Shown: positions 20,401 through 40,732, counted from the first letter of the stretch. The stretch is DNA of 64,000 nucleotides from Mycoplasmatales bacterium (GCA_965226165.1 CBDDCI010000002.1:656-64655), one strand, 5' to 3'. Notes: generated from the sequence alone by a model not told the origin. Translations and numbers: made by a program.

Positions 20401-20403
20401 TAT

Positions 20404-22368: not shown

Positions 22369-23680
22369 TCTTTATTTGAAGGTTGCATTCTCTACATATA
22401 AATCCTAATATACTATTTTCTTTGAAAGCATGATCATGATGAATGACTTTGATTTTATTTTCAATTATGTTTTCATTCTTTATATTATCTGTTGAAACTC
22501 TTATTCCAAATTCTGGAAAATGATCTTCTATATTTTTAAATGATAATTTCATATTAATTTCAGTTTTTTCTAAAATAATTTTTTCTAAATCATTTATACT
22601 AAAATGTTTGCTTTTATCATCAGAATATATTTTTAAGCCATCATATTCAAGAGTGAATATATTTATTCTTTTAATAACAAAATAGTTTATCATGATTTGT
22701 AATATTTGGTTTTCAATATCTAAAATGATTCTACTTAAGTTCTTTCCCAAGTGATTATAACCCTTTTCAAAATATCGTTTATCTTTTGAATAAAAATATT
22801 TTTGTATTTCTATAATTTCTTTTTCTAATAATTTCAAATAATTATTGATTCTATTATCATCAGAATATTTTTCTTTAAAGCCTCCGTTTAGAATAGTTAA
22901 AAACCTTTCCTTAACAGATTTTCTATTATTACCAAATGAATTTAAAATCAATTCTCTATTTTCAACATAATTCTTTAAAATATTACAACTTATTTCATAT
23001 TTCTGACATAAATTTAGTAATATAACAGGATGAGCATTAATCATATCGATGTCTTTTATATTTTTAGGCATAATAGAATTTCTAATTTCTTTTTTTAGAT
23101 AAGATAAACAACTTCCAACTCCATAATACCTGTTTTTACATTTATGTTTTTGTTTGTATTGAATTCTTTTTCTACCCGAATCATCTAAACTATCGTAATA
23201 ATTTCTTGCTAAATTATTTACTTCTTCATTATAATCATTATTATCTAATATATATTTTAATTTTTCTTTATCTACTATTTCATTTAAAATAATGCATCTA
23301 TCATTATGAGGATGATCAAATTCACAATCACAATATTTACATTTCAAAGTATTATCGAATTCGTTTTGATCAAAATTTAAATAATCAATAGGATTTTGTA
23401 AATATTTTTCTTCAATTTCTTCTATATATTTTAATTCGTTATACAAACTTTCTGTATATTCTTCTAAATAATAAAAAGTTTGAATGTTTTTACTATATTC
23501 ATCATTTTTGCATTCTAATAAATACCCTCCTGATATAAATTTATGTTCTTTAGTATTCGGGTCTATAACACATTCAAAATGGCTATGAATTAACCAATTT
23601 CTTTTAATACAATTTTTTAAATTTTCAAAATACATGTATTTTTTAAAATTAGGTAATAATTTTTTAGGTTTTCTATTCAT
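22346..23680 (-). CDS. Protein-primed family B DNA polymerase, middle portion (exonuclease/TPR region).
   Basis: Collinear with copy 3 fragments 46272-48107 (for example KNIKDIDMINAHPVIL, LEYDGLKIY, HHDH...CRECNLQIKN). It ends at the frameshift where copy 3 reads on into MYFFNGMKYDNSI. Confidence 0.7.
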   Translation of the reverse strand: MNRKPKKLLPNFKKYMYFENLKNCIKRNWLIHSHFECVIDPNTKEHKFISGGYLLECKNDEYSKNIQTFYYLEEYTESLYNELKYIEEIEEKYLQNPIDYLNFDQNEFDNTLKCKYCDCEFDHPHNDRCIILNEIVDKEKLKYILDNNDYNEEVNNLARNYYDSLDDSGRKRIQYKQKHKCKNRYYGVGSCLSYLKKEIRNSIMPKNIKDIDMINAHPVILLNLCQKYEISCNILKNYVENRELILNSFGNNRKSVKERFLTILNGGFKEKYSDDNRINNYLKLLEKEIIEIQKYFYSKDKRYFEKGYNHLGKNLSRIILDIENQILQIMINYFVIKRINIFTLEYDGLKIYSDDKSKHFSINDLEKIILEKTEINMKLSFKNIEDHFPEFGIRVSTDNIKNENIIENKIKVIHHDHAFKENSILGFICRECNLQIKNDSYIFL

Positions 23681-23821
23681 ACAATATTCAATATGAAAGT
23701 TATATTTTTCTTTACTATAAAAACTATTTAAGCAATTTCTACATGATTTAACAACATGAGAATTGTTACCAATAAAAATATTTATGTTTTTTATTAAAAT
23801 ATAATGATTTATTTCATCTAT

Positions 23822-24571
23822 TTATAATAAATCTAAATCTTTGTCATATGTTTTTAAAGATTTTCTAATAATTTTTTTACTAGCTAATTTTTTATTACAT
23901 CCGAATATATGAATATTACATTCTAAAAAAATTTCTATTTCATCAATTTCACCTATTGAAATGTTTTCAAAATCTGTATTATGTTCATCAATTAATTCTT
24001 TTGAAATTTTTATATCTTTTTTATTAATTCTAGAAATATTTTTTTCAATGGGGTTCAAATGTTTTCTAATGTAGCAATATAACAAGCATTTGTTATCATT
24101 TAAGTTTTTAATAATTACTAAATTTTTCTTTTTGAAAAACACATCAGGAATCTTATCAATTTCTTTTGAATCACCTGCAAAGAATATATTACATTCTGAC
24201 ATTTTTATAAGTAGTCTTGTGTTTTGAATGATTTTCATTTGACTAGCATCATATTCGATATCTCCTTCAGAAATAATGTTAATTTGTTCTTGATCAATAG
24301 GCGTTCCATCAAAAACGTCTCTATCTCTTCCGTATAAATCATCAAAATCAAAACTTTTTAAATGTTTAAAATTCTTTAAATTTAGTTTGTCTATATTATC
24401 AATTTCACTCATATTATTAATATTAAATTTTTCTATCCAAAAATTAGTTAAATCATCTTTTACAGATTGATTATATTTATATATACTTATTTTATATTCT
24501 TTATCCTTTTTTCTATGTTTTAAAATTAATGACTTAACTTTATCTTTAAAATATAAATCTTTATAAAACAC
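23822..24571 (-). CDS. Protein-primed family B DNA polymerase, N-proximal portion.
   Basis: Collinear with copy 3 45463-46901 (VFYKDLYFKD..., NDNKCFLYCYIRK, NIHIFGCNKK). It is separated from the next part by a single in-frame TAA. Confidence 0.6.
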   Translation of the reverse strand: MFYKDLYFKDKVKSLILKHRKKDKEYKISIYKYNQSVKDDLTNFWIEKFNINNMSEIDNIDKLNLKNFKHLKSFDFDDLYGRDRDVFDGTPIDQEQINIISEGDIEYDASQMKIIQNTRLLIKMSECNIFFAGDSKEIDKIPDVFFKKKNLVIIKNLNDNKCLLYCYIRKHLNPIEKNISRINKKDIKISKELIDEHNTDFENISIGEIDEIEIFLECNIHIFGCNKKLASKKIIRKSLKTYDKDLDLL

Positions 24572-24677
24572 ATCCTTATCAATTATATGAAAATCAATGA
24601 TTATATCAATAAATTTCTTTTTAATAGAAGTTCTTTTTTTTATTGTAAAATTTTTATCAAAATTATCAATATGTTGT

Positions 24678-24983
24678 TTAGAAAAAATAATGTTCTTTAT
24701 TTACAGTTTCGTCACATAATAGACAATCAAATTTTTCACATTCATTACAAAATTTTAAATAAGAAGTATTATGTTTTTCACAAAATGAATATCCTTTTCT
24801 AATATTCACCATTTTATCTAATCTATGTTCATTACAATATAGAATTTCTTTTTTTCCTGAATAGTTATAAGAAGATAATTTCTTACAATTATTTATAATA
24901 CAATATTTTTTATATTTTAAAATTTCCCCCTCTGGGGTCATATAAAAATATTCATTCAATTTTGTTATTTTCTTACTACCCAT
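24678..24983 (-). CDS. N-terminal Cys-rich (zinc-finger) domain of the polymerase gene. It is frameshifted relative to the downstream part.
   Basis: YCIINNC...YCNEHRL...FCEKH...CNECEKFDCLLCDETVNKEHYF matches the N-terminus of copy 3 45463-46170, where it is fused in frame. Confidence 0.5.
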   Translation of the reverse strand: MGSKKITKLNEYFYMTPEGEILKYKKYCIINNCKKLSSYNYSGKKEILYCNEHRLDKMVNIRKGYSFCEKHNTSYLKFCNECEKFDCLLCDETVNKEHYFF

Positions 24984-25069
24984 ATATAATAACTATATAT
25001 AAATATTCATATGGATTTTTAAAAATTACAGATTTTTTCATCTTGATGATTAGAACAATAATTATATTT

Positions 25070-25498
25070 TTAAATAATAAGGGTTAAATTCTGATAGTTA
25101 TTTAAAATTCTATCATTACAATAATCTTTAATAAATTTTGCATAACAATAAATATTATTTTTAATTAGTATTTTATCTACAATTGATTTATAAGTTTCAT
25201 TTTCATTTAAAATAAAATTATTCTTTTTTAATAAAAACATTATATATTCTCTGTTGTCATATACATGTTTTTTAAATATTAATTTTTTAGATTTAGTTAA
25301 TATATATTTTCTTTTTAATAAATAATACATATTTATATTATATTTTTTAAAAATATTATCAATATTAAATTTTTGAATATCTCTGTCTAAATAATAAATA
25401 TCAAATATTTTTATTAATACATTTTTAATGATATCATCAGATTCTTCATTGTTATCATTTTTTAATATGTTTTTTAATATGTCTATGTAAGTATCCAT
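25070..25498 (-). CDS. Hypothetical protein, 142 aa. It is a positional and weak sequence counterpart of copy 3 44039-44503.
   Basis: ORF with an ATG, lying between the pPolB and integrase genes and divergent from the integrase. Weak similarity in the KKYNINMYYLLKRKYIL region. Confidence 0.35.
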   Translation of the reverse strand: MDTYIDILKNILKNDNNEESDDIIKNVLIKIFDIYYLDRDIQKFNIDNIFKKYNINMYYLLKRKYILTKSKKLIFKKHVYDNREYIMFLLKKNNFILNENETYKSIVDKILIKNNIYCYAKFIKDYCNDRILNNYQNLTLII

Positions 25499-25593
25499 AT
25501 ATTTGTATTTATATTTTATACATATATAAATTTTATATTTTTAATCTAAATAAAATATATAGAATTGGTAAATATTTTTATATAATATATAAA

Positions 25594-26913
25594 ATGACAA
25601 TTGACATACATAAAGTGATAACTGGGAATCCTATAACAAAAAATTTAATGAAACCATGGGGTAGTAATAAAGAAAAAACAATTTTTAATAAATATACAGG
25701 TCCTGGGAACGATTTAAAAAAACAACTTGATTTTAATTCATATACAGGAGAAATTTATAAAATTCATGATCAACCTTCTTCTTCAAATGATAGATGTTCT
25801 ATGTTGCATGATGTTGCATATACAGTAGCTCAAAATATTGGAAAAAATAATAAAGATATTAAAAGATTAAAACATATAGCTGATGATAAATGGTTGAAAT
25901 GTTTTAAATCAAGGTCTCCCTGGGATATAGCAGCTTATTCGAGTATTAAATCTAAAAAAGTATTGGGACTAGGTAATAATTTTACAATAGAAGACCTTAG
26001 TCAAGAATTAAACAAACCTGTTATTAATAAATTTGAAAGGAAAAAAGTTATTGTGAATCATATAGATGAAATTCATTCTTGTGATTTAGTTGATATGGTA
26101 AAATATTCTAAAATGAACAAGGGATATAAATATATTTTTACAAATATTGATATTTTTTCAAAATATGCATGGAGTTTTCCTATTAAATCTAAAAATATTA
26201 AAGACATTAAACCATGTTTTGAAAAAATATTTAAAGAACGAAAACCTAAATATATTTGGTCAGATCAAGAATCAGCTTTTTTCTCTAATGAAATGTTAAA
26301 ATTTTTTGAAGATCATAACATAAAGATTTATCATACTTATTCAAATCTAAAAGCGGTTGCTATAGAACGATTTAATAGATCACTAAGAGAGTTAATGATG
26401 AAAGAATTTGTTAAAAATAATAATACAGTTTGGTATAATATTTTACCTGAACTAATAAAAAAATATAATAATAGATATCATAATACTATAAAAATGAAAC
26501 CAATTGATGTTAATAAAACAAATGAAAAATATATAAAAAATACTATATACAATTATAATATGACAAATAAAAAACCAAAATATAAAATTAATGATTTAGT
26601 TCGTATCAGTTTAAAAAGAAGAGAATTATTTGACAAACCTACTGGTAATATTAAATGGTCAGAAGAATTATTTAGAATTTATAAAATAAATAAATCGAAT
26701 GTTATAACATATCAATTAAAAGACATGAATGATGAAATTATTAAAGGCATTTTTTATGAAAAGGAACTACAATTAACAAAAAATATCACAGGGGAATATA
26801 TAATAGAAAAAATATTGAAGACTAATAAAAATAAAATACATGTAAAATGGAGAGGATACAATTCATCCTTTAATAGTTGGATCAATAAAAACAGTGTAAC
26901 AAAATATATATAA
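25594..26913 (+). CDS. Retroviral-type (rve, DDE) integrase with a C-terminal chromodomain.
   Basis: HSCDLVDM...GYKYIFTNIDIFSKYAWSFPIKSK (D, D), YHTYSNLKAVAIERFNRSLRE (E), chromodomain EYIIEKILKTNKNKIHVKWRGYNSSFNSW. Intact 439-aa ORF. Confidence 0.9.
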   Translation: MTIDIHKVITGNPITKNLMKPWGSNKEKTIFNKYTGPGNDLKKQLDFNSYTGEIYKIHDQPSSSNDRCSMLHDVAYTVAQNIGKNNKDIKRLKHIADDKWLKCFKSRSPWDIAAYSSIKSKKVLGLGNNFTIEDLSQELNKPVINKFERKKVIVNHIDEIHSCDLVDMVKYSKMNKGYKYIFTNIDIFSKYAWSFPIKSKNIKDIKPCFEKIFKERKPKYIWSDQESAFFSNEMLKFFEDHNIKIYHTYSNLKAVAIERFNRSLRELMMKEFVKNNNTVWYNILPELIKKYNNRYHNTIKMKPIDVNKTNEKYIKNTIYNYNMTNKKPKYKINDLVRISLKRRELFDKPTGNIKWSEELFRIYKINKSNVITYQLKDMNDEIIKGIFYEKELQLTKNITGEYIIEKILKTNKNKIHVKWRGYNSSFNSWINKNSVTKYI

Positions 26914-27046
26914 AAAATGACACAATTTATAAAAATGTATGTCACAGTTTTTATAGAGTTTTAAGTATAAAAATGACACAATTTATAAAAATGTATGTCA
27001 CAGTTTTATTAAATGAATTTCACAAAAAAATATATTATAATTATAT
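26914..27046 (+). promoter_or_regulatory. Intergenic direct repeats (2 x 38 bp) with TGACAC/GTCACA half-sites downstream of the integrase.
   Basis: AAAATGACACAATTTATAAAAATGTATGTCACAGTTTT occurs twice. Analogous GTGTCAT / ATGTCAT arrays follow the integrase in copy 1 (7040-7200) and copy 3 (38344-38698). Confidence 0.45.
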
Positions 27047-28141
27047 ATGACTACTTTTAAGGAAATAGACATTAATGAATATAAAAAATTATTAGATAAT
27101 ATGCAACACACATATGCAAAAACTTTTAATAATATTGAATTATTACATAATTTTGAAGAAAATATAAATGATAAAAATATTGGAACTGTTATTAAAGATA
27201 AAGAGTCATTAGAAAAAGAAGATAAATATATTGATAAATTAAGTGATAAATTATCAGAAAAAATTACAAATTCTAATAATAATAATAATAATATTATACA
27301 AGATAAGAAAAAATATGTTTTTTTAAACACACATGATTATTACAGTAAAAATCCAAAAGATATTTTAAACTATATTAAAAAAATATATATAAAATCAAAC
27401 ATTGGTTATGATAAAATATATAAACCAAGACCTAAAACTGTTAATGTAAGTCTTGGTAATATTATTAAAAAAATAGAAAATGATGATAAAATATCTAATG
27501 AACTCAAAGATGATTTTATTGATGCTTATAATAACATACCAAATAAGACAAGTATTCAATTTCATAATAAATATTATAGAGAATATGTTATGGAACCTAT
27601 TGAAAGGTATTATATCGAAAAAAATATCGATGCAGATGATGAAATATCTATTATAAGAGATGATGATCTATCAATTGTTCCCAGTAGTGATAAAGAAGAT
27701 AAATCTTTAAAAGATAAATTAAAATCAAATATTGAAAAAACTGTTGTTAATACTTTAACAGGACAGGGATTACATTTTAATAAAATTAAGATAGATGAAA
27801 ACCTCTTGAAAAAAAATATTTTAAAAGTTAGATATATTAATTCGAACAGAAAAATCAATAATAAATTTTTAAAAGAAGATTATAAAATTTCTAATAACAT
27901 GAAGAATAGTATATTAAAAAATACTGGTTTAAATAAATTAACTAAAAACGAATATAATGTCTATAATACATTACAAAAATATAGGAAAAATGATGATAAT
28001 TTACAATTACTAACATCATCATACTTAGCAGGGAATAAAAATAAAGATCTTTATAGCAAAATAAATGAACTGTTATATAAGAATTATAAAAATAATATCA
28101 TTAATAAAAAACAATATCAGAATATTATAAATAAGTCATAA
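27047..28141 (+). CDS. Lys/Asn-rich conserved Polinton protein, 364 aa, function unknown.
   Basis: The conserved C-terminal block ILKVRYINSNRKINNKFLKEDYKISNNMKN...SSYLAGNKNKDLYSKINELLYKNYKNNIINKKQYQNIINK is shared with copy 1 and copy 3 (38699-39646). Confidence 0.5.
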   Translation: MTTFKEIDINEYKKLLDNMQHTYAKTFNNIELLHNFEENINDKNIGTVIKDKESLEKEDKYIDKLSDKLSEKITNSNNNNNNIIQDKKKYVFLNTHDYYSKNPKDILNYIKKIYIKSNIGYDKIYKPRPKTVNVSLGNIIKKIENDDKISNELKDDFIDAYNNIPNKTSIQFHNKYYREYVMEPIERYYIEKNIDADDEISIIRDDDLSIVPSSDKEDKSLKDKLKSNIEKTVVNTLTGQGLHFNKIKIDENLLKKNILKVRYINSNRKINNKFLKEDYKISNNMKNSILKNTGLNKLTKNEYNVYNTLQKYRKNDDNLQLLTSSYLAGNKNKDLYSKINELLYKNYKNNIINKKQYQNIINKS

Positions 28142-28155
28142 TTATATTATATATA

Positions 28156-28848
28156 ATGACTGAACTAATTCTTAATTCAAACGAACATAAAGTTGATGTA
28201 AATAAATTAAGATATGAATTCAAATCACCTATTAGATTTGATAATTCTTTTGTATCATTAACACAATTTGTCTTTCATAATTTTTTTCATAATGTAAAAC
28301 AAAATTATGAAATGAAAGTGAGGAAAGATAGTACTTTTTATAATATTAGTTTTATAGATTCAATGCTAGAAATTGAAGATATCAATAAAATTATTAATGA
28401 TGAGTTGATAAGACACGAGTTATCAACTGAAGATGATCCTCCTATAATTAATATTATAGGAGATGTAAATACATTTAAAATAATTATTTTAGTTGAAAGA
28501 GGATATGAATTACATTTAGATAATAATTTTGCTAAAATGTTAGGATTTAGTTATAAAATTTTAAAAAAAGATTTGCAAAGAAGTGATTTAATTCCTCAAA
28601 TTAATCGTATTAATTATCTTAAAATTTATTCTAATATTATTGATAATGAAAATAATCCTTATTATCTTAGTTATGTCTTTATCAAGTCAAATGTTTCTGA
28701 ATTAAGTGTTTATAATGAAAATAATATATATAAAAAACAAAAAATAATTAATGATATTTTTGATTATATAGAAATTGAAATTTTTGATGAAGAAAATGAA
28801 AAAATAGAAATGACTGATTACTTTTCAGTTAGTTTATATATTCATTAA
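28156..28848 (+). CDS. Conserved 230-aa protein, a candidate minor capsid (penton) protein.
   Basis: Homologs at 5343-6035 and 39653-40342. TATATATAATG start context. Confidence 0.55.
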   Translation: MTELILNSNEHKVDVNKLRYEFKSPIRFDNSFVSLTQFVFHNFFHNVKQNYEMKVRKDSTFYNISFIDSMLEIEDINKIINDELIRHELSTEDDPPIINIIGDVNTFKIIILVERGYELHLDNNFAKMLGFSYKILKKDLQRSDLIPQINRINYLKIYSNIIDNENNPYYLSYVFIKSNVSELSVYNENNIYKKQKIINDIFDYIEIEIFDEENEKIEMTDYFSVSLYIH

Positions 28849-28857
28849 TTATATATA

Positions 28858-29235
28858 ATGCCTTTACAAAAATTATCAGAAATAGAAGAAAAATTAGGAA
28901 AAGATTATATTGATATTAAAAAAAGATATATTAAATTAAAAAGATGTAAATATGCTCTTTTAATTTTAAAAACAAGTTTATTATCATTATCTATAGGTTT
29001 ATCTTTTTTAAATCCTATATTAATAATAGTATCATCAATCGTTCCTATTATAGATAGTATTATGTTAATAACAAATAAAGATAAAGAAGTCTCTCATTTG
29101 AAATTACAAAAAGATATTATTAACCAAATTATTAAAGAAATTGAAATTAAAAGATATACTTTTGAAAATGATGAAGAAGTTAAAAAATATATTTTAGAAG
29201 TATATGGAAAAATAGAAACATTTTTAGATATATAA
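28858..29235 (+). CDS. Small transmembrane protein, 125 aa.
   Basis: Hydrophobic core LLSLSIGLSFLNPILIIVSSIVPIIDSIMLI. Its position is conserved upstream of the ATPase. Confidence 0.5.
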   Translation: MPLQKLSEIEEKLGKDYIDIKKRYIKLKRCKYALLILKTSLLSLSIGLSFLNPILIIVSSIVPIIDSIMLITNKDKEVSHLKLQKDIINQIIKEIEIKRYTFENDEEVKKYILEVYGKIETFLDI

Positions 29236-29244
29236 TAATATATA

Positions 29245-29883
29245 ATGAAGTTCATAAATTTTGATAATATAGTTAATAAAAATAATGAAAATAATTATAT
29301 TAATAAAAATGTTTTTGTACCTCAACATGTTTCAAATACAATTATTATAGGTCAATCAGGCTGTTCAAAGACAAACCTATTATTCAATATATTAACATTA
29401 AATCCAGTTTTTCAAAAAATATTTATTTTTACTAAAGAACCAGAAGCAAAATATAATTTTCTTATAAAAAAATTTCCTCAAGATATAAAAATTTTTTATC
29501 AAAATGATGAATGTGATTTAGATAAATTAATTAAAGGAGATTTGCAAACCTGTTGTATCTTTGATGATCAACTAACAGATAATAAAAAAATTACTGATTG
29601 GTTCATACGTTCAAGAAAGAAAAATTGTTCTAATTTCTTTTTAGCACATTCATATTTCAAAATGAGTAAAACATTAAGATTGAACGTTAATTATATTATT
29701 TTATTTAAAATTCCTAAAAATCAATTAACTCACATATATAATGATCAACCAATTAATATTGATAGAGAATTATTTTATAAAATCATTTCAGAATTAAATA
29801 GATATGAAAATATTATTATAGATTTAAAAACTCCTATTGATAAATTTCAAATTAGAAAAAATCTGAATGAAATATTATGTTAA
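29245..29883 (+). CDS. FtsK/HerA-superfamily (A32-like) DNA packaging ATPase.
   Basis: Walker A IIIGQSGCSKTN, Walker B-like CCIFDDQ. 212 aa. Confidence 0.85.
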   Translation: MKFINFDNIVNKNNENNYINKNVFVPQHVSNTIIIGQSGCSKTNLLFNILTLNPVFQKIFIFTKEPEAKYNFLIKKFPQDIKIFYQNDECDLDKLIKGDLQTCCIFDDQLTDNKKITDWFIRSRKKNCSNFFLAHSYFKMSKTLRLNVNYIILFKIPKNQLTHIYNDQPINIDRELFYKIISELNRYENIIIDLKTPIDKFQIRKNLNEILC

Positions 29884-29896
29884 TATATAATATATA

Positions 29897-30061
29897 ATGA
29901 TAGTTAACGGTGTTATTGTTTCAAAGGATAAAAATAAATATCAAATAGGAGAAGGACTTAAATTAGTTAAATAAGGATCTGGATTAACAAATACAAAGGG
30001 ATCTGGAATATCAAATGTTAAAAAACTTGTAAAAGGAAATGGACTAAAAATCTTACAATAA
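29897..30061 (+). pseudogene. Small Lys/Gly-rich basic protein gene with an in-frame TAA after codon 25.
   Basis: MIVNGVIVSKDKNKYQIGEGLKLVK*GSGLTNTKGSGISNVKKLVKGNGLKILQ* is in one frame. It is homologous to the intact copy 1 (4136-4339) and copy 3 (41369-41518) versions. Confidence 0.45.
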
Positions 30062-30088
30062 AAAAATAATATTTTATTATAATATATA

Positions 30089-31285
30089 ATGACTAGTGAA
30101 CTGAACCATATCATAAATTTAATAAAATCAAAAAATGAAAAAGTAGAAAACATATGTTATAAAGAAGTACATAAAATTAAATTAGAAAAAAGAGATGGAA
30201 ATAATCCCATCGTTTTTAATACTAAAAGTATTTTAAGTAACTTAATTGATTATAGCAATGCTTACATCGAATTTCAATTTAACATTAAATTTGCAACGGC
30301 TGATGCTTGTACAAAAGCAAATTTAACTCTTAAAAACTCATATGAAATGATTTTGGAATTGAAAATTGAATTAAACAATAGAATCATTTCAAATGAATCT
30401 AATGTTAATTATAGTCATATTATAAATCATCTATTAGAAAATAGTAAAAATGATGATTTAATTTATAGGAATATTGATATTCATACCGATGTTGTCAAAT
30501 ATAACGATACTAAAAAGGATGTTTTTTTAACAAAAAATGGTGATACTATGAGAGTTACTTGCAATGTCTTTTTAAAAGATATTAGTAACTTTTTCAAAAA
30601 TTTACATATGCCCCTAAAATTTTCAGAATTTAATATAACACTTAGATTAGTCGATTCTATCTATGTTACAGATCAACCTGATACAACTCAAACATTAGTA
30701 AGTGCTAATTTATATGTTGATCAAGTAGATTTACATGAAATGGAAGAAATTCAATTTGTTAAAAATTATAATAATTTTGATGTTAATATTCCATTTTTAG
30801 AAAATTTTGTTATTAGAGATTCTCAAAACATAACAGATAATGAGTTTAATGTAGGAGCAAATAATTGTACAAACACAAACGATATGTTTTTAATGTTAGT
30901 TAAAGATGATGTTGTTACAAATAATACTCATACAAATTCTCTTCGTTTACCTAATAAAAGAGCTAAAAATCTTCAATTATATATAGGGAATCAACTATTT
31001 CAAACAGGAATTAAAAGCGATCTAGAAGCTTATTTAGAATTAAAAAAGAGAAGTGAATTCTTTGATGAATTTATCATAGATTACAATAGATTTTTAAATA
31101 ATTATACTATTTATGCTTTTCCAATAAATAGATATAGTAAAAAAGATAAATCGACAAAATATATTAATATAACAGGTGTTGGTATTGATGAAAATGCTTC
31201 AAAAGGTATTTTAGTATGGAGACAAATGTCAAATATTAATCTTAAAATAAATAATAATTCATTAGAAATAAGAAAAACATATTAA
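30089..31285 (+). CDS. Putative major capsid protein (double jelly-roll candidate), 398 aa.
   Basis: Largest conserved structural ORF. Its position between the small basic protein and the pre-protease/protease genes is conserved in all three copies (2929-4107, 41544-42788). No sequence-level proof of a jelly-roll fold. Confidence 0.5.
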   Translation: MTSELNHIINLIKSKNEKVENICYKEVHKIKLEKRDGNNPIVFNTKSILSNLIDYSNAYIEFQFNIKFATADACTKANLTLKNSYEMILELKIELNNRIISNESNVNYSHIINHLLENSKNDDLIYRNIDIHTDVVKYNDTKKDVFLTKNGDTMRVTCNVFLKDISNFFKNLHMPLKFSEFNITLRLVDSIYVTDQPDTTQTLVSANLYVDQVDLHEMEEIQFVKNYNNFDVNIPFLENFVIRDSQNITDNEFNVGANNCTNTNDMFLMLVKDDVVTNNTHTNSLRLPNKRAKNLQLYIGNQLFQTGIKSDLEAYLELKKRSEFFDEFIIDYNRFLNNYTIYAFPINRYSKKDKSTKYINITGVGIDENASKGILVWRQMSNINLKINNNSLEIRKTY

Positions 31286-31300
31286 ATAATTATATAATAC

Positions 31301-31888
31301 ATGGAAGTTAGTTATAAGTTTTCGCCTAAAGAAATACAAAAATTATCTAAGTTTAAAAATCCTTCTATAATTTTAAGAAAAGAGAATATTGTAAAAAATG
31401 GAAAATATAAGGTTCATCTTACTAAAAACATGTTTAATAAATTACTTGAACATAAACAATTGAAATATGTTTTTACTGATAAAAGAAAGGAAAACTATAT
31501 TAGAGAGGGAGGATCATTGGATTCAATTTTTAAAAGTTTATCTCCTCATTTAATTAAATTTGGGAAGAAGCTTTTGCCATCTCTTGGAGTTACTGGAATA
31601 ACAACAACCACTTCTCATCTGATAAATAAATCTTTAAACAAAAAGAAGAAAAAAGGAGGTGATTTAAAAATAGTTTTATCACAATCAGATGTAAATAAAA
31701 TTAATAATGTTTTGAGAAAATTATCAAACATGAAATTAACTAATCACAAATCCATTTCAGAACAAAACGGATCAGGAATTTTTACTCGCTTATTATTGCT
31801 TTTAATTGGGAGTATGATACCATCATTATTAAATAAAGGATCGGGTGTTTGTTGTAATAAAAAAGATAATTTTTTTTTGAAAAAATAA
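31301..31888 (+). CDS. Pre-protease structural protein, 195 aa, with a C-terminal hydrophobic segment and KGSG motifs.
   Basis: ...EQNGSGIFTRLLLLLIGSMIPSLLNKGSGVCCNKKDNFFLKK. It ends inside a T9 run that overlaps the protease ORF. Confidence 0.5.
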   Translation: MEVSYKFSPKEIQKLSKFKNPSIILRKENIVKNGKYKVHLTKNMFNKLLEHKQLKYVFTDKRKENYIREGGSLDSIFKSLSPHLIKFGKKLLPSLGVTGITTTTSHLINKSLNKKKKKGGDLKIVLSQSDVNKINNVLRKLSNMKLTNHKSISEQNGSGIFTRLLLLLIGSMIPSLLNKGSGVCCNKKDNFFLKK

Positions 31889-31935
31889 ATAACAAAGATT
31901 TATACCCAATTTCAAATTTTAAAATTAATGAAATT

Positions 31936-32307
31936 TTGAAAAATAATGAAAATTATATAGGAACTTTTAGTAAAAATAACGTTCCTAAACTTAAAAATAA
32001 TCAATCAACAATATTTAATTTGGCTAATTCAAATGATAAGGGAAGTCATTGGATAGGAATGAAATTTATAAATAACAAATTATTTTATTTTGATTCATAT
32101 GGAATTCCATATATTCCTGATGTTATAAAAAATCAATACTCAGATGATAAAATTATAATAAATATTTATAGAATTCAAAGTAATGATTCAAATGAATGTG
32201 GGAGATTTTGTATAATGTTTATTCAATCAAATATAAAAAATGAATCAGACTATATTAAATTTTTATTACAATTTGAAAAAAATAATTTTGAAAAAAATGA
32301 TATATAA
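31936..32307 (+). CDS. Adenovirus-type (adenain/Ulp1-like) cysteine protease.
   Basis: GSHWIGMKF...FYFDSYGIP...NECGRFCIMF. The track start is TTG, not ATG. The ORF is open back to ~31890 (FFFEKINNKDLYPISNF), just after the TAA of another frame. Confidence 0.7.
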   Translation: MKNNENYIGTFSKNNVPKLKNNQSTIFNLANSNDKGSHWIGMKFINNKLFYFDSYGIPYIPDVIKNQYSDDKIIINIYRIQSNDSNECGRFCIMFIQSNIKNESDYIKFLLQFEKNNFEKNDI

Positions 32308-32313
32308 GTATAT

Positions 32314-32523
32314 ATGATGGATAGTTCTTATTGCCTTAAATGTAAACGAAAAACAAAAAATATTAATTCAAAAGGATTTGTTACAAAAAATAAAAAATAT
32401 TTAGTTAAATCTTTATGTGATATTTGTAAATCTAAAAAAAGTAAATTTGTTTCAAAACAAGATGCTTCTGGTTTTCTTTCAAATCTCTTTTCAAAAATAC
32501 CAATACTAAATAAAATTATATAG
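32314..32523 (+). CDS. Small zinc-ribbon protein, 69 aa.
   Basis: CLKCKRKTKN-x-CDICKSKKSKFVSK, conserved with 1709-1915 and 43836-44042. Confidence 0.55.
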   Translation: MMDSSYCLKCKRKTKNINSKGFVTKNKKYLVKSLCDICKSKKSKFVSKQDASGFLSNLFSKIPILNKII

Positions 32524-32529
32524 TATATA

Positions 32530-33147
32530 TTGATGTATTATTATAGAGAATCAACTAAAGATAATTATGAAGATGATATAAGAAACTTGAATATTAAAAT
32601 TGATATTGTTTATTCTTTACTAGAAAATATTACTAAAGATAGAAATGATTTATTAATATTGTTTAATTCTAGAATAAATGATAACATCCCAAATGAAAAT
32701 ATTTTTCATAATGATGTATATGTTGATTCAGATAATAGATTTAAATTAATTTTTACATGTAAATCTGAACCTAGTGATATCTATAAATATATTTTTCATA
32801 TATTTATAAAATCTGATTTTAATAATATAAATTTAAAATTTATAATTAATAATAATAAAGATTTCACTTATGATATTTATGTTAATAAATTGTATTATTT
32901 AAAAATTGAAGAAAAATTTATTTTTAATGAAATTCAGAACTTTAAAATATATTTAAAAACTGATAAATCATTAACTATAATGGGTTATAGTTCATATGAA
33001 GTATTAGTAAACTATCATTCTGTAACAATTTTAAATAATCAAGATCATATTAAACGATTAATTTATAAAAAATTGGATAAAAACAACAAACTAATTAGAG
33101 AGTTTATATTAAAAGATATTAAAAAAGATGATTTACCGATTAAATAA
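32530..33147 (+). CDS. Conserved Polinton hypothetical protein, N-terminal half. It is split from 33160-33687 by a stop, where copy 1 has a single 325-aa ORF.
   Basis: Collinear with 726-1703, conserved block LIFTCKS.PSDIYKYIFHIFIKSDFNNINLKF. The real ATG is at 32533. Confidence 0.45.
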   Translation: MMYYYRESTKDNYEDDIRNLNIKIDIVYSLLENITKDRNDLLILFNSRINDNIPNENIFHNDVYVDSDNRFKLIFTCKSEPSDIYKYIFHIFIKSDFNNINLKFIINNNKDFTYDIYVNKLYYLKIEEKFIFNEIQNFKIYLKTDKSLTIMGYSSYEVLVNYHSVTILNNQDHIKRLIYKKLDKNNKLIREFILKDIKKDDLPIK

Positions 33148-33159
33148 TTTATATTATAT

Positions 33160-33687
33160 ATGGATGAGATAGTAGAGAGAGTTGAAAATAATTTTATTAA
33201 TATTTATAAGAAATTTGATATCTTAGATAAAAAATTAAATGATTATCATATGAAATTTGATAAAATAAACGAAATGATTGATATTATTATTTCAGATGAA
33301 TATACTAAAATTTATAAAACATATTTTCCAATGAAAAATTATGATCTAGCACAAGATAGATTTTTTATATACAACGAAGTCATTGATATACCATTAAAGA
33401 CAAATACTTTTATTATTTTTGAATATGTTTTTTATAGTGAATATATTGATATTCCATTAATTATTAATTTAAAAATTGATGATGTTTTAGAAAAATATTT
33501 TAATATACATTTAAAGGAATATAATAAAATTAGGCACATATTTAAATTAGATTATAACATTACTAAAATTAATTTTTATTTATATTTGTATAGTAATGAA
33601 ATATATAATGATGAAAAAATGGAATACTTGAAAAAAATATTATTTAATAATAAAAAAATTAAATTTAATATATTTTCTTTTATATAG
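33160..33687 (+). CDS. Conserved Polinton hypothetical protein, C-terminal half.
   Basis: Matches the C-terminal half of copy 1 726-1703 (ILDKKLN.YHMKFDKINEMIDIIISDEY.KI.K.YFPMKN.DL.QD.FFIYN.VIDIP). Confidence 0.45.
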   Translation: MDEIVERVENNFINIYKKFDILDKKLNDYHMKFDKINEMIDIIISDEYTKIYKTYFPMKNYDLAQDRFFIYNEVIDIPLKTNTFIIFEYVFYSEYIDIPLIINLKIDDVLEKYFNIHLKEYNKIRHIFKLDYNITKINFYLYLYSNEIYNDEKMEYLKKILFNNKKIKFNIFSFI

Positions 33688-33691
33688 ATAT

Positions 33692-34795
33692 ATGAATTAT
33701 TATAGAAAACTTATAGAGAAAACAATTAATGATGTTAAGTTGAAAATGCAAATCGGTGCTTTAACAGTTAGAATAACTGAAAATATTAATAAAATAAATG
33801 ATTTACTTGAAGTAGATAAAGATATTAAAAAAGATGTTAGTGATAATTCAAATGCTCTTAAAAATTTTTACACTAAACAAGATGTACTAAATATAACAGG
33901 TCAATATTATTTAAAAAAATATCTTTATGATAAAACATATATAGATACTAATTTTTTAGTAAAATCAGAAATTGATAAGAAAGATAATGAAATATTAAAT
34001 AAAGTAAATAATAATTTTTATTCAAAAAATTACACTAGCGATAATTATCACTTAAAAAACAATGTTTATGATAAGAATTATATAAACAATTTAACTAATA
34101 ATCTTTATAACAGAACACATTTAGATAATCAATTTAATAATATATATAATAAAACAGAAATAAATGATGAAATATCAAAATTGGATAGGAACATTGTTTT
34201 ATTCAATACAAATTTAACCAAATTTATTGATGAAACTTATGAAAACGATAAAGAAATTTTAGAAGGAGATATAAAAGAAAATAAAAATTTCATTATTAAT
34301 ACATTTAGTACATTTTCAAACAACATTAGTAACATCAATAATAGTCAAAATAGTAGATTGAGTGATTTAGAAAGTAAAAATTTAAGTGATACTCAAATAA
34401 CTAAAATAAATGAATTAGAGAATATTGATCTTGGGAAGATTAATAAATATTCATATTATATAAAAGAATTTTTTATGCATAATATAGATTTAGTCAGGAG
34501 GTTTAATATAACATCTGAAGCAGATTCTATTCAAGTACTACAATTTGAAATAGATAGAAATTTTTTAGTTAATGATATAATCAAATTTTTTATAAGTATA
34601 AAGTTTTTGTATGAAAACATGAAAATGTATTGGGTACTATATTTTAAGATAGATGTTCATTATAAAGATGATGTATTAATTAAAAGTTTTAAAAGACAAA
34701 TGACCTCAAAAGGATTTATTTTCAAAAACCTAGTGACATTTAATATAGATAATATGTTTAAACTTAATAAACAAACAGATCGATTAATTTTTTAA
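33692..34795 (+). CDS. Asn/Tyr-rich coiled-coil protein, 367 aa, a candidate fiber/spike protein.
   Basis: N-terminal coiled coil, then reiterated N-x-Y-x-K/N-Y motifs (YDKTYIDTNFL, YSKNYTSDNYHL, YDKNYINNLTNNLYNRTHLDNQFNNIYNKT). It is the last gene before the right TIR. Confidence 0.45.
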   Translation: MNYYRKLIEKTINDVKLKMQIGALTVRITENINKINDLLEVDKDIKKDVSDNSNALKNFYTKQDVLNITGQYYLKKYLYDKTYIDTNFLVKSEIDKKDNEILNKVNNNFYSKNYTSDNYHLKNNVYDKNYINNLTNNLYNRTHLDNQFNNIYNKTEINDEISKLDRNIVLFNTNLTKFIDETYENDKEILEGDIKENKNFIINTFSTFSNNISNINNSQNSRLSDLESKNLSDTQITKINELENIDLGKINKYSYYIKEFFMHNIDLVRRFNITSEADSIQVLQFEIDRNFLVNDIIKFFISIKFLYENMKMYWVLYFKIDVHYKDDVLIKSFKRQMTSKGFIFKNLVTFNIDNMFKLNKQTDRLIF

Positions 34796-34799
34796 ATAA

Positions 34800-35680
34800 C
34801 GTTTATAAACAAAAAAATTTCAACATTCAAAGTTTGTTTTTTAATGACTCAGTATTTTTTCGTTACATTTTCGTCAGTGAATTCGAAAATAATACCGAGT
34901 CATATAGAAACAAACAAAAAATCATCGCCACTGACAAACCCTGACAAACCTAACAAAAATATGAATAAACATCTATTCGAACAAGTAGTATACATTCCTC
35001 CGAATTCTCTCAAAATGAAAAATAGGAAGAACAAATTTGCCAGTTTCTCGGGGAGATCCGTTTAAATATATATATATCCATATTCGAGTATATTGGGGAT
35101 TTTTAGTGAGCTTAATCAAGAAAATTAATTAGCGGAGTTTGGTTAATTTTTAAGAAAAAAAGTTCAATGCACGTCGAAATGGAATGAAGTGAGCGAAGCG
35201 AACGGAATGAAATGGAGACGTGCATTTGAACCTTTATTTTTGAAAAAGATTGACGCGGAGTTCTGATTAACTTTTTCGATGGGCGATAAACGATTATCTA
35301 ACACTATCATCATATTCCCAAAATCTTGTAAATTCCCCATTTTAAAAGCATTTATCTCGAGAGGTTTTTTAAAATTGGTTTAGAATATGTTTTTTTATTA
35401 CTAAAGAATATTTGAAGATATTTTTTTTTTCTATATCATTTTCATCTTAAAAACAATATTTGATTATTATTTATTATCAATGTTGAAAATTGGAGCTTTA
35501 AATATTGCAAGATTTTGTCATATTTTCAGTTTTTGTCTGTACGACCCAAAAAACGACCCCTGAAATGCTCGAGTACAAGATATCAACATATTTAAACGGA
35601 TCTCCCCGAGAAACTGGCAAATTTGTTCTTCCTATTTTTCATTTTGAGAGAATTCGGAGGAATGTATACTACTGAAATTA
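34800..35680 (-). repeat. Right terminal inverted repeat of copy 2.
   Basis: Reverse complement of 18392-19160. The terminal ~85 bp block is also present in inverted orientation at 34985-35065. The identical track ORFs 18903-19151 and 34844-35065 are a consequence of the TIR. Confidence 0.8.
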
Positions 35681-36290
35681 GTGTTGAGTTGTTATTACGA
35701 AATTGTGATTAATTAAATGAAATTAGTCTGAAATTATATGAAATGAGTATGAAATTATATGAAAATAGTGTTGAGTTGTTATTACCATGTAACGATTATT
35801 TGAATGACTCAGATTTTTTATCGCTGTTTTTCAAGTTATTTACGGGTTATGAAGCGATAATTGTGATTATTTGTCGAAAAAAACACAAGCTGTTAAAGTA
35901 GGGTTAAGTAGTTATAACAAAATCTTAATTTATTTGAAAAATTATATGAAATGAGTATGAAAATGATATGAAAATTATATGAAATTAGTCTGAAATTATA
36001 TGAAAATTAGCATGAAATTATATGAAAATTAGTATGAAATTATATGAAAAAAATTAGTATGAAATTATATGGAATTATATGAAAAAAATAAAAATGATGT
36101 ATAAATTATTTAAAAATAGTGTTCAGTTGTTATTAGTGTGCAACGATTAATTAAACGACTCAGATTTTTTATGGCTGTTTTTCGCGATATTAGCTGTCAA
36201 TGTCGTGATAATGAGTGTTATTTGTAGAAAAAATATGAGCTGTTAAAGTAAGGTTAAGAAGTTATGATGAAATTTTAAATTTCTTAATCA
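35680..36290 (+). repeat. Satellite S (forward orientation) between copy 2 and copy 3.
   Basis: Same ~180 bp unit and ATGAAATTATATGAAA microrepeats as 17940-18392. It is inverted at 50100-51180. Confidence 0.75.
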
Positions 36291-37008
36291 TAAAATTTTT
36301 CAAAAAAAAATTTTGAAAAAAAAATTTACAAAAAAATTTTCAAAAAATTTTAAGTTAGTGGTTTAAAAATTTAAATAGTACTTAAAAATTTTACAAGCGG
36401 ATGCTCGATTAGACTAACTCCCTAATTGAGTTCAGTCAAAGCAACACTAACACCACGGTTTAGGGTTCCGTGGAGACCTGCTCCAAAAAATTCGAAATGC
36501 ACCAAATTCATCGTAACTTGCAGGCTGCGTATCCCTGACTGATTCGTCAAATAGACGAATGACAGCTGACCTCTATACTGAAAATTCACGACTGCAATCG
36601 ATTACTATCGGGTATAGGGGAGATGCGTTTTGTATTAATATATCAAAGCGTTTTAAAACAAGAAAAAAAAATCGTGGAATTATTTGACAGTGTAATCATA
36701 CCATATTAGGAATTACTATATACACTCTATGATATGACGCTTGTTGTTATCATGTATATGTGTACTTAAAATTTTTTTGGGAAAAATTTTTTTTTTTGAA
36801 AATTTTTTTTGGAAAATTTTTTTTGAAAATTTTTTTTTGGAAAATTTTTTTTTTGGAATTTTTTTTTGGAAAATTTTTTATATTAATCTCAATCAAATTA
36901 TCAAAATATTTAACATTTAAATTATAACAATTTTGCTCGTATATCATTCTATATATATAATGTATGTGGAATATTTGTTATTATATAGTCTAACATAATA
37001 TTATATAA
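36290..37008 (+). repeat. 5' terminal region of copy 3: simple repeats, inverted block A (36380-36620) and a ~75 bp TIR (36870-36950).
   Basis: 36380-36620 is the reverse complement of 8740-9000. 36870-36950 is inverted at 49975-50050 (TATGAGCAGGATTGTTATAATTTAAATG...ATAATTTGATTGA.ATT.ATATAAAA). Confidence 0.6.
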
Positions 37009-38343
37009 ATGGTAATCGACATTCATAAAGCTATTATATCTAATCCAATTAGTAAAAATCTATTAAAACCGTGGGGAAGTTTTGCTAAACCAAATTCTTT
37101 AAGAGGAAAAATATTTAATAAATACACAGACCCTGGAAATCCAATTGAAAAACAAGTTGATTTTCATCCTTATACAGGTCAAATATACAAAGTTCATGAT
37201 CCTCCACTATCAAATAACGATAGATGCAGTATGTTTCATGACATAGCTTATACTGTTGCTCAAAACGTAGGAAAAAATCCAAAAGACGTTAAAAACAGAA
37301 AATTACAAGCTGATGATAAATGGTTAGATTGTTTTAAAGTAAGAACACCGTATGATATGCTGGCTTATAGTGCTATTAAAACTAAAAAAACTCTTGGATT
37401 AGGAAATAATTTTACAATGGAAGACCTTAGTCAAGAACTAAATAAACCAACAATTCAAAAATTTGAAAGACAGAAAGTAATTGTTAATCATATAAACGAA
37501 ATACACAGTACAGATTTAGTCGATATGACTCAATATTCAAAAATGAATAGAGGTTATAAATATATTTTTACTAATATTGACATTTTTAGTAAATATGCTT
37601 ATGCTTACCCGATTAAATCTAAAAAAATACAAGACATTAAACTCTGTTTTGAAAAAATATTTAAAAATAATAAACCAAAATACATATGGTCAGATAAAGA
37701 ACCAGCTTTTTTATCTAAAGAAATGCAAGTGTTTTTCAAAAATAACAACGTTAAAATATACCATACCAACAGCCATTTAAAAGCAGTCATTGTTGAAAGA
37801 TTTAACCGTTCATTACGAGAATTGATGATGAAAGAATTTGTTAAAAATAATAATACAGTCTGGTATAATATTCTACCAAAATTAATAAAAATATATAATA
37901 ATAGATACCATTCTACTATTAAAATGAAGCCTACCCAAGTAAATAAAAACAATGAAAAGTATATTAAAGAAAATATATATACTTATAATAAAACAAATAA
38001 AAATCCTAAATTTAAAATAGGGGATTTAGTCAGAATTAGTTTAAAAAGAAGAAACCTTTTTGATAAACCGTCTGGTAATATTAAATGGACTGAAGAATTA
38101 TTCAAAATACATTCAATTACTAAATCAAATGTAATAACTTATAAAATTAAAGATTTAAATGATGAAATAATAAAAGGTATTTTCTACGAAAAAGAATTAC
38201 AAAAAACTAAAAATACTTCTGAAGTATATGTTATAGAAAAAATTATTCGGAGAAATAAAAACAAATACCTCGTTAAATGGAGAAATTATTCAAACGATTT
38301 TAATAGCTGGATTGATAAAGATGATATAATAAAATATACATAA
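37009..38343 (+). CDS. Retroviral-type (rve) integrase with a C-terminal chromodomain.
   Basis: HSTDLVDM...GYKYIFTNIDIFSKYAYAYPIKSK, YHTNSHLKAVIVERFNRSLRE, chromodomain VYVIEKIIRRNKNKYLVKWRNYSNDFNSW. About 70% identical to copy 2's integrase. Confidence 0.9.
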   Translation: MVIDIHKAIISNPISKNLLKPWGSFAKPNSLRGKIFNKYTDPGNPIEKQVDFHPYTGQIYKVHDPPLSNNDRCSMFHDIAYTVAQNVGKNPKDVKNRKLQADDKWLDCFKVRTPYDMLAYSAIKTKKTLGLGNNFTMEDLSQELNKPTIQKFERQKVIVNHINEIHSTDLVDMTQYSKMNRGYKYIFTNIDIFSKYAYAYPIKSKKIQDIKLCFEKIFKNNKPKYIWSDKEPAFLSKEMQVFFKNNNVKIYHTNSHLKAVIVERFNRSLRELMMKEFVKNNNTVWYNILPKLIKIYNNRYHSTIKMKPTQVNKNNEKYIKENIYTYNKTNKNPKFKIGDLVRISLKRRNLFDKPSGNIKWTEELFKIHSITKSNVITYKIKDLNDEIIKGIFYEKELQKTKNTSEVYVIEKIIRRNKNKYLVKWRNYSNDFNSWIDKDDIIKYT

Positions 38344-38698
38344 ATATGTCATTTTCAAATACGCAATTAACAAAAAACATGTCATTACAATTATTTTTAT
38401 GACATCATAAATCCGTGAAAATATGTCATTTTCAAATACGTAATTAACGAAAAACATGTCATTACAATTATTTTTATGACATCATAAATCCGTGAAAATA
38501 TGTCGTGAAAATAATAAAAATATGTCATTCATAAATCCGTGAAAATGATAAAAATACGTTCAAATACGTAATTAACGAAAAACATGTCATTACAATTATT
38601 TTTATGATTCATTCCGTGAAAATAATAAAAATATGTCATTTTTAAATATGCAATTAACAAAAAATATGATATCACGTTTTTGTATAATCTATTAATAT
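38344..38698 (+). promoter_or_regulatory. Array of ~75 bp direct repeats rich in ATGTCAT / ATGACAT motifs downstream of the integrase.
   Basis: The unit tatgtcattttcaaatacg.aattaac.aaaaacatgtcattacaattatttttatgacatcataaatccgtgaaaa is repeated 3-4 times. Confidence 0.45.
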
Positions 38699-39646: not shown

Positions 39647-39652
39647 TATTAT

Positions 39653-40342: not shown

Positions 40343-40348
40343 AAATAT

Positions 40349-40717
40349 ATGATGTATTTAGAAAAGTTATTTAATGAAATATTATTACAATTAAAAGAAG
40401 AATCTAAAAAATATAAAAAATTAAAAATATGTAAATACTCGTTTGAAATTTCTAAAGTAGTTATTTTATCATTAGCTACAGGATTATCTTTTATTAATAT
40501 TTTTGCTATTCTATCTATAATCTAATACCTGTCATAGATACTACAAAACATACTGCTAATATAGATCAAAGATTAAATATGTGTAAATTAAAGAAAGACC
40601 TTCTTAAAGAATTATATAATTACAGGTCATCGACTTATAAAAATTTAAATGAAGAAGAAATAAATCATCTTTATGATAAATTAACAAATAAACTTTCTGT
40701 TATAAATACTTTTTAAA
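40349..40717 (+). pseudogene. Small transmembrane protein gene with a frameshift after the hydrophobic segment.
   Basis: MMYLEKLFNEILLQLKEESKKYKKLKICKYSFEISKVVILSLATGLSFINIFAILSII*. The conserved tail IPVIDTTKHTANIDQRLNMCKLKKDLLKEL...EINHLYDKLTNKLSVINTF follows in another frame. It is about 70% identical to copy 1 4968-5336. Confidence 0.45.
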
Positions 40718-40732
40718 ATGGTTTAAATATAT

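Follow-up and report, generated by a model that had tools for sequence, protein, structure and literature searches.

A start-abutting TATATA box in Maverick/Polinton-type elements of a probable anthozoan genome as a candidate compact promoter

Maverick/Polinton-type elements at the locus

The 64,000-nucleotide stretch analysed here (GCA_965226165.1 CBDDCI010000002.1:656-64655, deposited as Mycoplasmatales bacterium; hereafter the window) consists of DNA of about 35% GC broken by three blocks of 16-22% GC, which on their Pfam gene content are Maverick/Polinton-type elements, and nearly every gene of these elements opens with a TATATA box lying at or just before its start codon. Copy B (18387-35675, 17.3 kb) is complete: its termini read 5'-AGTAGTATAC...GTATACTACT-3' (AGTAG...CTACT), it is framed by the 6-bp target-site duplication (TSD) GAAATT (18381-18386 and 35676-35681), and its left and right terminal inverted repeats (TIRs; 18387-19157 and 34811-35675) have arms of about 770-865 bp (18389-19157 and 34811-35673) that are 99-100% identical. 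Because the duplication is intact and the TIRs are nearly identical, copy B appears to be a recent integrase-mediated insertion. It is nested inside the left TIR of copy C (17489-18386 plus 35682-36298, matching 50101-51641). The main part of copy C occupies 35682-51641 (plus strand), with its ends read from the sequence; its left TIR, split by copy B, resumes at about 17489-18386, its inverted repeats (17544-18391 plus 35673-36298 versus 50101-51587) are 98-100% identical, its second TIR spans 50101-51641, and no TSD is recognisable at its ends. Copy A (1 to approximately 9300, minus strand) is a partial structural-gene arm that runs off the start of the window and has about 74% nucleotide identity to copy B.

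Among the genes of these elements there are an rve integrase with a chromodomain (PF00665, E 3e-11 at 25594-26913 and 1.6e-10 at 37009-38343), a family B DNA polymerase of the protein-primed type (pPolB; PF03175, E 4e-27 at 20404-22368 and 8e-24 at 48140-49066), an A32/FtsK-type packaging ATPase (PF04665, E 5.6e-8) and an adenain-like protease (PF00770, E 3.5e-6). Two hallmarks of Mavericks/Polintons were also found, a double jelly-roll major capsid protein and, in copy B, long TIRs combined with a 6-bp TSD and a size within 15-20 kb. The capsid proteins have no Pfam V20 or V18-19 match, unlike that of a Sputnik-like virophage fragment discussed below, and resemble virophage capsid proteins in fold only. 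A 230-aa protein (28156-28848) has no Pfam or PHROG match and is, by its position, the candidate for a single jelly-roll penton protein. Ten proteins of unknown identity were compared with PHROGs and the 1534-aa replication protein with PDB sequences, neither giving a useful match, and Rfam and tRNA scans of the window returned nothing.

All genes of each arm share one orientation. The divergently transcribed left arm of copy B holds a 142-aa gene and the replication gene (20404-24983, minus strand), which is split into four open reading frames (ORFs) of 101, 249, 444 and 654 aa, and is whole, with 1534 aa, in intact copies such as L005 (263-4867, minus strand). The 1534-aa protein comprises EsV-1-7 cysteine repeats, a region resembling the primase of Polinton-like viruses (PLVs), which is 30% identical to the N-terminal part of the DUF5906 primase-helicase of a PLV-like contig (L007), and the pPolB. 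This protein and the narrow capsid family point to the odd elements of Octocorallia, Hydrozoa and Bivalvia, which group with aquatic PLVs (preprint 10.64898/2026.06.19.733378).

The flanks of the elements carry reverse-transcriptase fragments of the LINE type (long interspersed nuclear element) and a gene combining 40-aa tetratricopeptide repeats (TPR) with a CHAT domain (59875-63999, plus strand). The named sequences most closely related to this TPR-CHAT gene, those of the octocoral Dendronephthya (50% identity) and of stony corals, are TTC28-like proteins, and by this homology the host is inferred to be an animal, probably an anthozoan. The capsid protein has 886 matches; those whose sample was looked up, ranging from 93% down to 26% identity, all come from one long-read DNA assembly of the European Nucleotide Archive (ENA), ERZ25073769, and relatives with a listed source are from ENA only. 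Because these relatives trace to a single assembly, the family is, as far as sequences tell, high-copy in one host and otherwise unseen; the capsid protein and capsid alignment found no relatives in IMG/VR and JGI metagenomes, nor did the ATPase alignment in IMG/VR.

A TATATA box adjoins nearly every gene start

In the right arm of copy B (plus strand) the box precedes the integrase gene, whose product also has a phospholipase A2 (PLA2)-like N-terminus (25586-25596, TATATAAAATG), and is found as TATATATG at the starts of the 364-aa gene (27042-27049), the gene for a 69-aa zinc-ribbon protein (DUF5679; 32309-32316) and the 175-aa gene (33155-33162). The form TATATAATG opens the 230-aa gene (28150-28158), a 125-aa membrane-like gene (28852-28860), the A32-type packaging ATPase gene (29239-29247), a small ORF upstream of the capsid gene (29891-29899) and the major capsid protein gene itself (30083-30091). 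Variant forms occur at the 195-aa gene (31291-31303, TATATAATACATG; TATATAATATATG in other copies), the 204-aa gene (32524-32535, TATATATTGATG; TATATAAATG in the copies L005 and L006) and the 367-aa gene (33681-33694, TATATAGATATATG). On the minus strand of the left arm, the replication gene starts, with its EsV-1-7 cysteine region, at TATATATG (24981-24988), and the 142-aa gene (25496-25528) has a weakened proximal box, AAATATATG, with TATATA 24 nt upstream, where L005 and L006 have ACATATATATG.

The other copies follow the same pattern. In copy A, all on the minus strand, boxes lie at 699-706 (TATATATG), 1701-1715 (TATATAAAATATATG), 1913-1920 (TATATATG), 2909-2921 (TATATAATATATG), 4105-4113 (capsid gene, TATATAATG), 4307-4317 (small ORF, TATATATTATG), 4956-4964 (ATPase gene, TATATAATG), 5334-5341 (TATATATG), 6033-6045 (TATATAATATATG) and 7036-7044 (TATATAATG). 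In copy C, the plus-strand boxes are those of the integrase gene (37002-37011, TATATAAATG), the ATPase homologue (40728-40735, TATATATG), a small ORF of 49 aa (41364-41371, AATATATG), the capsid gene (41538-41546, TATATAATG), a disrupted gene downstream of it (42802-42811, TATATAAATG), two further starts (43831-43838, TATATATG; 44525-44535, TATATACAATG) and the replication gene with its EsV-1-7 cysteine region (45457-45465, TATATAATG); a minus-strand gene has TATATACATTAATATACAATG at 44501-44521.

A first-pass annotation of this DNA had proposed that TATATA(A/T)AATG overlaps nearly every start codon, and the counts bear this out. Of 36 ORF starts on the coding strands of the three copies, 25 have TATATA within positions -10 to +1 of the ATG, compared with 24 among the 851 remaining ATGs (Fisher p 1.2e-26), so the motif is not equally common at other ATGs of the same AT-rich DNA. 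In a curated set of 63 starts, drawn from the window, the intact copy L005 and the divergent copy L004, a TATAWA box lies 1-12 nt upstream of 58 (5.2 expected) and TATATA within 30 nt upstream of 61; 20 of these starts end in TATATATG, 19 in TATATAATG, three in TATATAAATG and two in TATATAAAATG. All 12 positions given as examples by that annotation lie about 10 nt before an ORF-opening ATG, at which the sequence reads TATATA(A)(A)ATG or TATATATG. TATATA is also the top enriched hexamer in the interval from -14 to +1, 31-fold over the element background, and is linked to 9 of 720 ATGs in the host-like flanks and to none of 209 in the TIRs, regions that thus lack the association. The interval assigned to the phenomenon, 25580-34795, covers only the right arm of copy B, the whole element being 18387-35675.

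The proximal box lies 0-5 nt from the ATG, and in 38 of the 63 starts it ends at -1 or shares the A of the ATG. The spacers are indeed short, as had been noted, although slightly tighter than the 10-25 bp reported: in the right arm of copy B they measure 4-15 bp at 9 of 12 junctions, and 47, about 113 and 133 bp at the others. Short spacers contain A and T only, and where spacers are long the box still adjoins the ATG, as at the integrase and capsid genes. This geometry bears on whether the box could be a canonical TATA box bound by the TATA-binding protein (TBP) for host RNA polymerase II, with transcription starting about 30 nt downstream. TBP would bind TATATA(A) well, the nuclear DNA of an animal is where the elements reside, and coral polintovirus genes are seen in ordinary RNA-seq (PMC11131425); however, transcripts begun some 30 nt past the box would start within the ORF and lack its AUG, with the next in-frame Met distant (in the capsid gene, for example), and a box 25-36 nt upstream, for which the proximal box could act as initiator, is present at only 12 of 63 starts, a weak enrichment over the 5.2 expected. 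We consider this explanation very improbable, and the earlier view that the promoters are not of host type is supported in so far as the geometry does not suit a canonical TATA box.

A second TATAWA is found 13-24 nt upstream of 26 of the 63 starts (5.2 expected), usually 7-10 bp from the proximal box, and this distal box often overlaps the ATA-TAA end of the previous gene. The overlap with upstream stop codons is what would be expected if TATATA, with the frequent AATAA(A/T) around the stop, directed 3'-end formation or termination of the upstream gene, or marked a dual stop-restart junction; in yeast, UAUAUA serves as an efficiency element for 3'-end formation. Such a gene-end role is nevertheless quite improbable, given that the box also stands ahead of each arm's first gene (25586-25596; L005 5422), which has no gene before it, that it follows the ATG and not the stop where spacers are long, that gene ends show no AATAAA enrichment (p 0.15), and that no box trails the final genes of the arms.

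Few starts depart from the rule. The weakest genuine ones (38699, 39653 and 25498) retain (A)TATATG only, and the boxless ORF "starts" of the left arm (22346-23680 and 23822-24412) are pieces of the broken 1534-aa gene. The adenain-like protease ORF (31936-32307) alone has neither its own ATG nor a TATATA; relative to the 195-aa ORF upstream (31301-31888) its frame is -1, the frame changing across a T-run at 31866-31890 (AATTTTTTTTTGAAAAAATAA), and since it would be joined to that ORF by the frame change it does not count as an independent unit. The break is kept in winB, L005, L006a (TCTTTTTTT) and winA (TATTTTTT), whereas L002, with T10, reads through to give a single protein of 337 aa. Classical -1 slippery sites include U_UUU_UUU, and the T-run may be either a programmed frameshift or slippage site that makes a precursor-protease fusion, or a homopolymer sequencing error.

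The box is under purifying selection

In an alignment of seven right arms that are 10-30% diverged, the 8 nt preceding the ATG have a mean pairwise difference of 0.084, in comparison with 0.188, 0.130 and 0.244 at codon positions 1, 2 and 3 and 0.318 at four-fold A/T third positions (Mann-Whitney U test, p 6e-8 and 4e-16). The box survives indels that shift its register, TATATAATG becoming TATATATG (for instance ATTATATATAATGCCT versus ATTATATATGGCT), and it is present at most intact gene starts of L003 and L004, whose capsid proteins are 34% and 26% identical to that of copy B; it is retained in lineages with 26-45% capsid identity. The box is a selected, gene-start-linked signal under purifying selection.

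A functionless origin, in which TA repeats fill short spacers under extreme A+T mutation pressure, would be in keeping with the 16-22% GC of the elements and with spacers made only of A and T. When the comparison is restricted to ATGs whose 10 upstream bases are all A or T, TATATA is still found at 18 of 22 ORF starts against 9 of 85 others (p 2e-10); second codon positions are less conserved than the spacers, neither indels nor the divergence of the 26-45% identity lineages have removed the box, and the TIRs and other non-coding AT-rich parts have no ATG-linked boxes (0/209). Composition alone is excluded by these controls and by the conservation, and we find an absence of function hardly credible.

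The register of the box relative to the ATG varies, position -3 being A or T about equally, and because the box is also kept through indels, the sequences argue for a DNA-level signal with flexible spacing, which would fit better than a fixed Kozak-type context. The same observation bears on an RNA-level role, in which a single long RNA per arm would originate in the divergent region (25498-25594) and the unstructured UAUAUA would aid ribosomes in internal initiation at each AUG or in reinitiation past the stop codon before it. Consistent with this possibility, stop-to-start gaps are tiny (4-15 nt), intergenic terminators and AATAAA enrichment are lacking, the genes of one arm share orientation, and internal TATATA is not avoided. 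However, the box stands in at least two registers relative to the AUG, whereas a translation context would be register-specific; it is present also ahead of each arm's first gene and after spacers of 113-133 bp or more than 1 kb; and the corresponding motif of nucleocytoplasmic large DNA viruses (NCLDVs) as well as virophages is regarded in published work as belonging to promoters. We know of no precedent in animal cells for reinitiation past long ORFs through at least 12 cistrons, and an RNA-level role is, in our judgement, unlikely. The idea of a splice acceptor or of spliced-leader trans-splicing was rejected, as no AG precedes the ATGs (G at -1 in 1 of 37 starts).

The same motif in viruses and virophages

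The IMG/VR database was scanned for TATAATATATAATG, and all ORF starts of the contigs chosen were then scored for TATATA in positions -10 to +1; because these comparators were chosen by the motif itself, they show its existence and not its frequency. A Sputnik-like virophage fragment (L067; major capsid protein V20, E 5e-105) has the motif at 5 of 6 ORFs versus 7 of 186 ATGs, an NCLDV-like fragment (L118; family B polymerase, E 3e-92) at 7 of 14 ORFs versus 11 of 576 ATGs, and a contig from a giant-virus metagenome-assembled genome (GVMAG; L048) at 7 of 17 ORFs. The PLV-like IMG/VR contig L007, which encodes an IVa2-type ATPase, the DUF5906 primase-helicase and an rve-like protein and was reached via a distant match of the replication protein, has it at 7 of 12 ORFs. 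The likeness to NCLDV and virophage promoters suggested by the first-pass annotation is thus upheld, whereas its description of the motif as element-specific is not, the same motif being present in these unrelated virus contigs.

TATATA motifs have been reported as frequent upstream of Nucleocytoviricota genes by the geNomad authors (PMC11324519), and VirSorter2 uses a "TATATA_3-6" class (PMC7852108); TATATA ahead of genes is regarded in published work as a hallmark of giant viruses. The start-proximal TATATA of Nucleocytoviricota, as captured by Prodigal and the VirSorter2 class and by prodigal-gv in geNomad, is similar to the box described here in its hexamer, its placement and its occurrence in AT-rich compact genomes; it differs in that the present genes belong to integrase-bearing elements in an animal genome, with tighter spacing (38/63) and no viral RNA polymerase nearby. 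In asfarvirus and kaumoebavirus TATATA lies 0 to -20 from the ATG (PMC5974111), and late genes of African swine fever virus (ASFV) have a TA(+1)TA initiator and AU-rich leaders with a median of 9 nt, with AU/AUAU slippage (PMC7163114). The ASFV-type late initiator (asfarvirus, faustovirus, kaumoebavirus, pacmanvirus) shares a TATA that lies at the initiation site in ASFV and at the ATG here, and the AT-rich element found 4-12 bp upstream in ASFV (PMC7163114) has a similar layout to the doubled box, whose parts are 7-10 bp apart. In contrast, ASFV encodes an 8-subunit polymerase and TBP and TFIIB homologues and uses its motif only for late genes, whereas in the elements all genes carry the box and no such factors are encoded. 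As integrase, replication protein and capsid genes all have it, the label "late-type" does not apply.

The poxvirus TAAATG, to which the motif had been likened, also overlaps the start codon, and its slippage-made leader is a plausible parallel, but the sequence differs and TAAATG occurs at only 3 of the 63 starts. The closest analogue in sequence is the ASFV-type TATA late initiator or TATATA motif and not the poxvirus one. Sputnik, mavirus (TCTA), endogenous mavirus-like elements (EMALEs) and the transpoviron resemble the present elements in having one short motif before nearly all genes and a GC content far under that of the host; virophages and EMALEs carry the promoter of their helper (PMC8547959), and genes of the pacmanvirus transpoviron carry their helper's TATATA (PMC11788076). 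Mavirus and EMALEs are moreover integrated, with TIRs and an rve integrase, as here, although the present host is an animal and the copy number is in the hundreds. We know of no helper virus for these elements.

Coral and other animal Mavericks/Polintons match the present elements in size, gene set, TIRs and 6-bp TSD; in stony corals polintoviruses are widespread, and their genes are expressed in ordinary RNA-seq (PMC11131425). We found no report of a start-proximal TATATA rule in the literature on Mavericks/Polintons. The motif class is known, but the literature that we found does not describe Maverick-type elements in an animal genome that use it, under selection, at nearly all their genes. 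From the eukaryotic TATA box (TATAWAW), which is alike in sequence, the present box differs in its distance, 0-5 nt from the ATG as opposed to at least 25-35 nt ahead of the point where transcription starts.

A compact core promoter as the probable function

The position and enrichment of the box, its purifying selection and deep conservation, and its identity with the TATATA of NCLDVs and virophages are matters of observation; as to function, we think it probable, judging from these sequence features, that the box is a compact core promoter/initiator directing gene-by-gene transcription of near-leaderless mRNAs. Each start-abutting TATATA, often doubled, would be the core promoter/initiator of its own gene, with the transcription complex positioned on the easily melted TATATA and RNA synthesis starting inside or just past it. 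Because the RNA would begin there, each mRNA would have an A/U-only leader of 0-10 nt and the start codon as its first AUG, to which slippage of the polymerase along the TA repeat might add further nucleotides, in the way that the ASFV RNA polymerase adds AU or AUAU. Transcripts would probably run on and form 3'-nested sets, since there is no terminator or poly(A) signal between genes.

Several points weigh against a core promoter/initiator, the selection of the IMG/VR comparators by the motif itself being one of them. The information content of the motif is modest in DNA of 80-85% A+T. Internal coding TATATA is not depleted (70 versus 76 after synonymous shuffling, z -0.9), so the hexamer alone is not avoided as a spurious signal, and internal TATATA(A)ATG is as frequent as after shuffling (9 versus 9.1). 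Gene ends offer no counterpart: AATAAA lies near 14 of 38 stops (10.7 expected, p 0.15), for which reason the idea of a poly(A) signal at gene ends was dropped, and NCLDV-type T-run terminators are lacking between genes, the only one being a T7 run about 20 nt past the polymerase stop. Finally, no homologue of RNA polymerase, VLTF3 or TBP was found in the element by Pfam, PHROG and PDB sequence searches.

As a separate observation, the long spacer that follows the integrase gene in the right arm of copy B (133 bp; 26914-27007) contains two copies of AAAAATGACACAATTTATAAAAATGTATGTCACAGTTTT, and in copy C and L004, too, the integrase/PLA2 genes are followed by a string ATGTCA..TTTT; this may mark the boundary of a unit or a terminator.

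Maverick/Polinton expression is little understood, and a selected six-base box offers a concrete promoter model together with a cheap annotation rule. The box might also be an ancestral trait linking PLVs and Nucleocytoviricota.

Which polymerase could read the box

The box could be read by the host's RNA polymerase II, working in a non-canonical geometry and perhaps aided by a zinc protein of the element, or by the polymerase of a co-infecting AT-rich giant virus, and we hold the two about equally probable. In favour of the host enzyme are the hundreds of copies integrated in nuclear DNA and the expression of coral polintoviruses in ordinary RNA-seq (PMC11131425). The giant-virus polymerase is favoured by the identity of motif and placement, by an element GC content far under that of the host, by a single box being common to all genes, a trait shared with Sputnik and mavirus, and by the PLV affinities, including the preprint grouping of Octocorallia, Hydrozoa and Bivalvia elements with aquatic PLVs. 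An animal-host precedent is given by PLVs reported in the occlusion bodies of insect entomopoxviruses (PMC11296320; cited also in preprint 10.64898/2026.06.19.733378). On the side of the host enzyme, it should be added that we know of no giant virus of cnidarian cells.

A giant-virus or virophage box in elements whose GC content is 15-20 points under that of the host raises the direct question whether there are virophage-like elements in animals that await a giant virus. That the elements are wired for giant-virus transcription, as virophage-like parasites of an unseen AT-rich NCLDV infecting a cnidarian and possibly serving host defence, is a minor but real possibility; if so, the hundreds of integrated copies would be a dormant reservoir, as mavirus is in Cafeteria. 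If instead host RNA polymerase II reads the box, it would represent an unusual near-leaderless promoter type in a metazoan. A candidate giant-virus genome bearing an element, suggested by the 114x coverage of ctg131302, was dropped, as its flank is gene-poor and its only called ORFs have 32-74 aa.

Other features of the elements and their surroundings

The sub-terminal noncoding DNA of copy B contains arrays at 19150-19514, 19612-19742 and 20006-20073. They comprise about 5.6 inward-facing units of TTTTTATATATGAATTTTTTCTAT (88-91% matches), followed by units of GAAAATTATATAAAATTTTTT. The array at 19150-19514 (plus strand), with units of 24-25 bp, carries the gene-start string TATATATGAAT and no gene; the arrays could be factor-binding arrays, decoys or origin-related.

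At the N-terminus of the integrase (25690-25887, residues 33-98) there is a parvovirus-type PLA2-like domain (PF08398, E 1.4e-3, under the Pfam cut-off), which in the divergent L004 is a separate 139-aa gene (4740-5159; E 1e-8). The Gly/Lys-rich small ORF (29897-30061) lies directly upstream of the capsid gene in all lineages; intact versions have 52-56 aa and end in ...GLKILQ, and that of copy B is cut at codon 26 by an in-frame TAA. L004 is a whole contig (ERZ25073769 ctg70784, 15.2 kb, 16% GC) without host flank, in which the region upstream of the replication gene recurs near the opposite end (about 14480-14520), and it could be an episomal or rearranged form.

In the host-like DNA, the TTC28-like gene has about 22 tandem 120-bp units (40-aa TPR; 60145-62883) followed by the CHAT domain, and runs off the window; listed alongside it is 52064-53398 (minus strand), with LINE-type reverse-transcriptase fragments close by.

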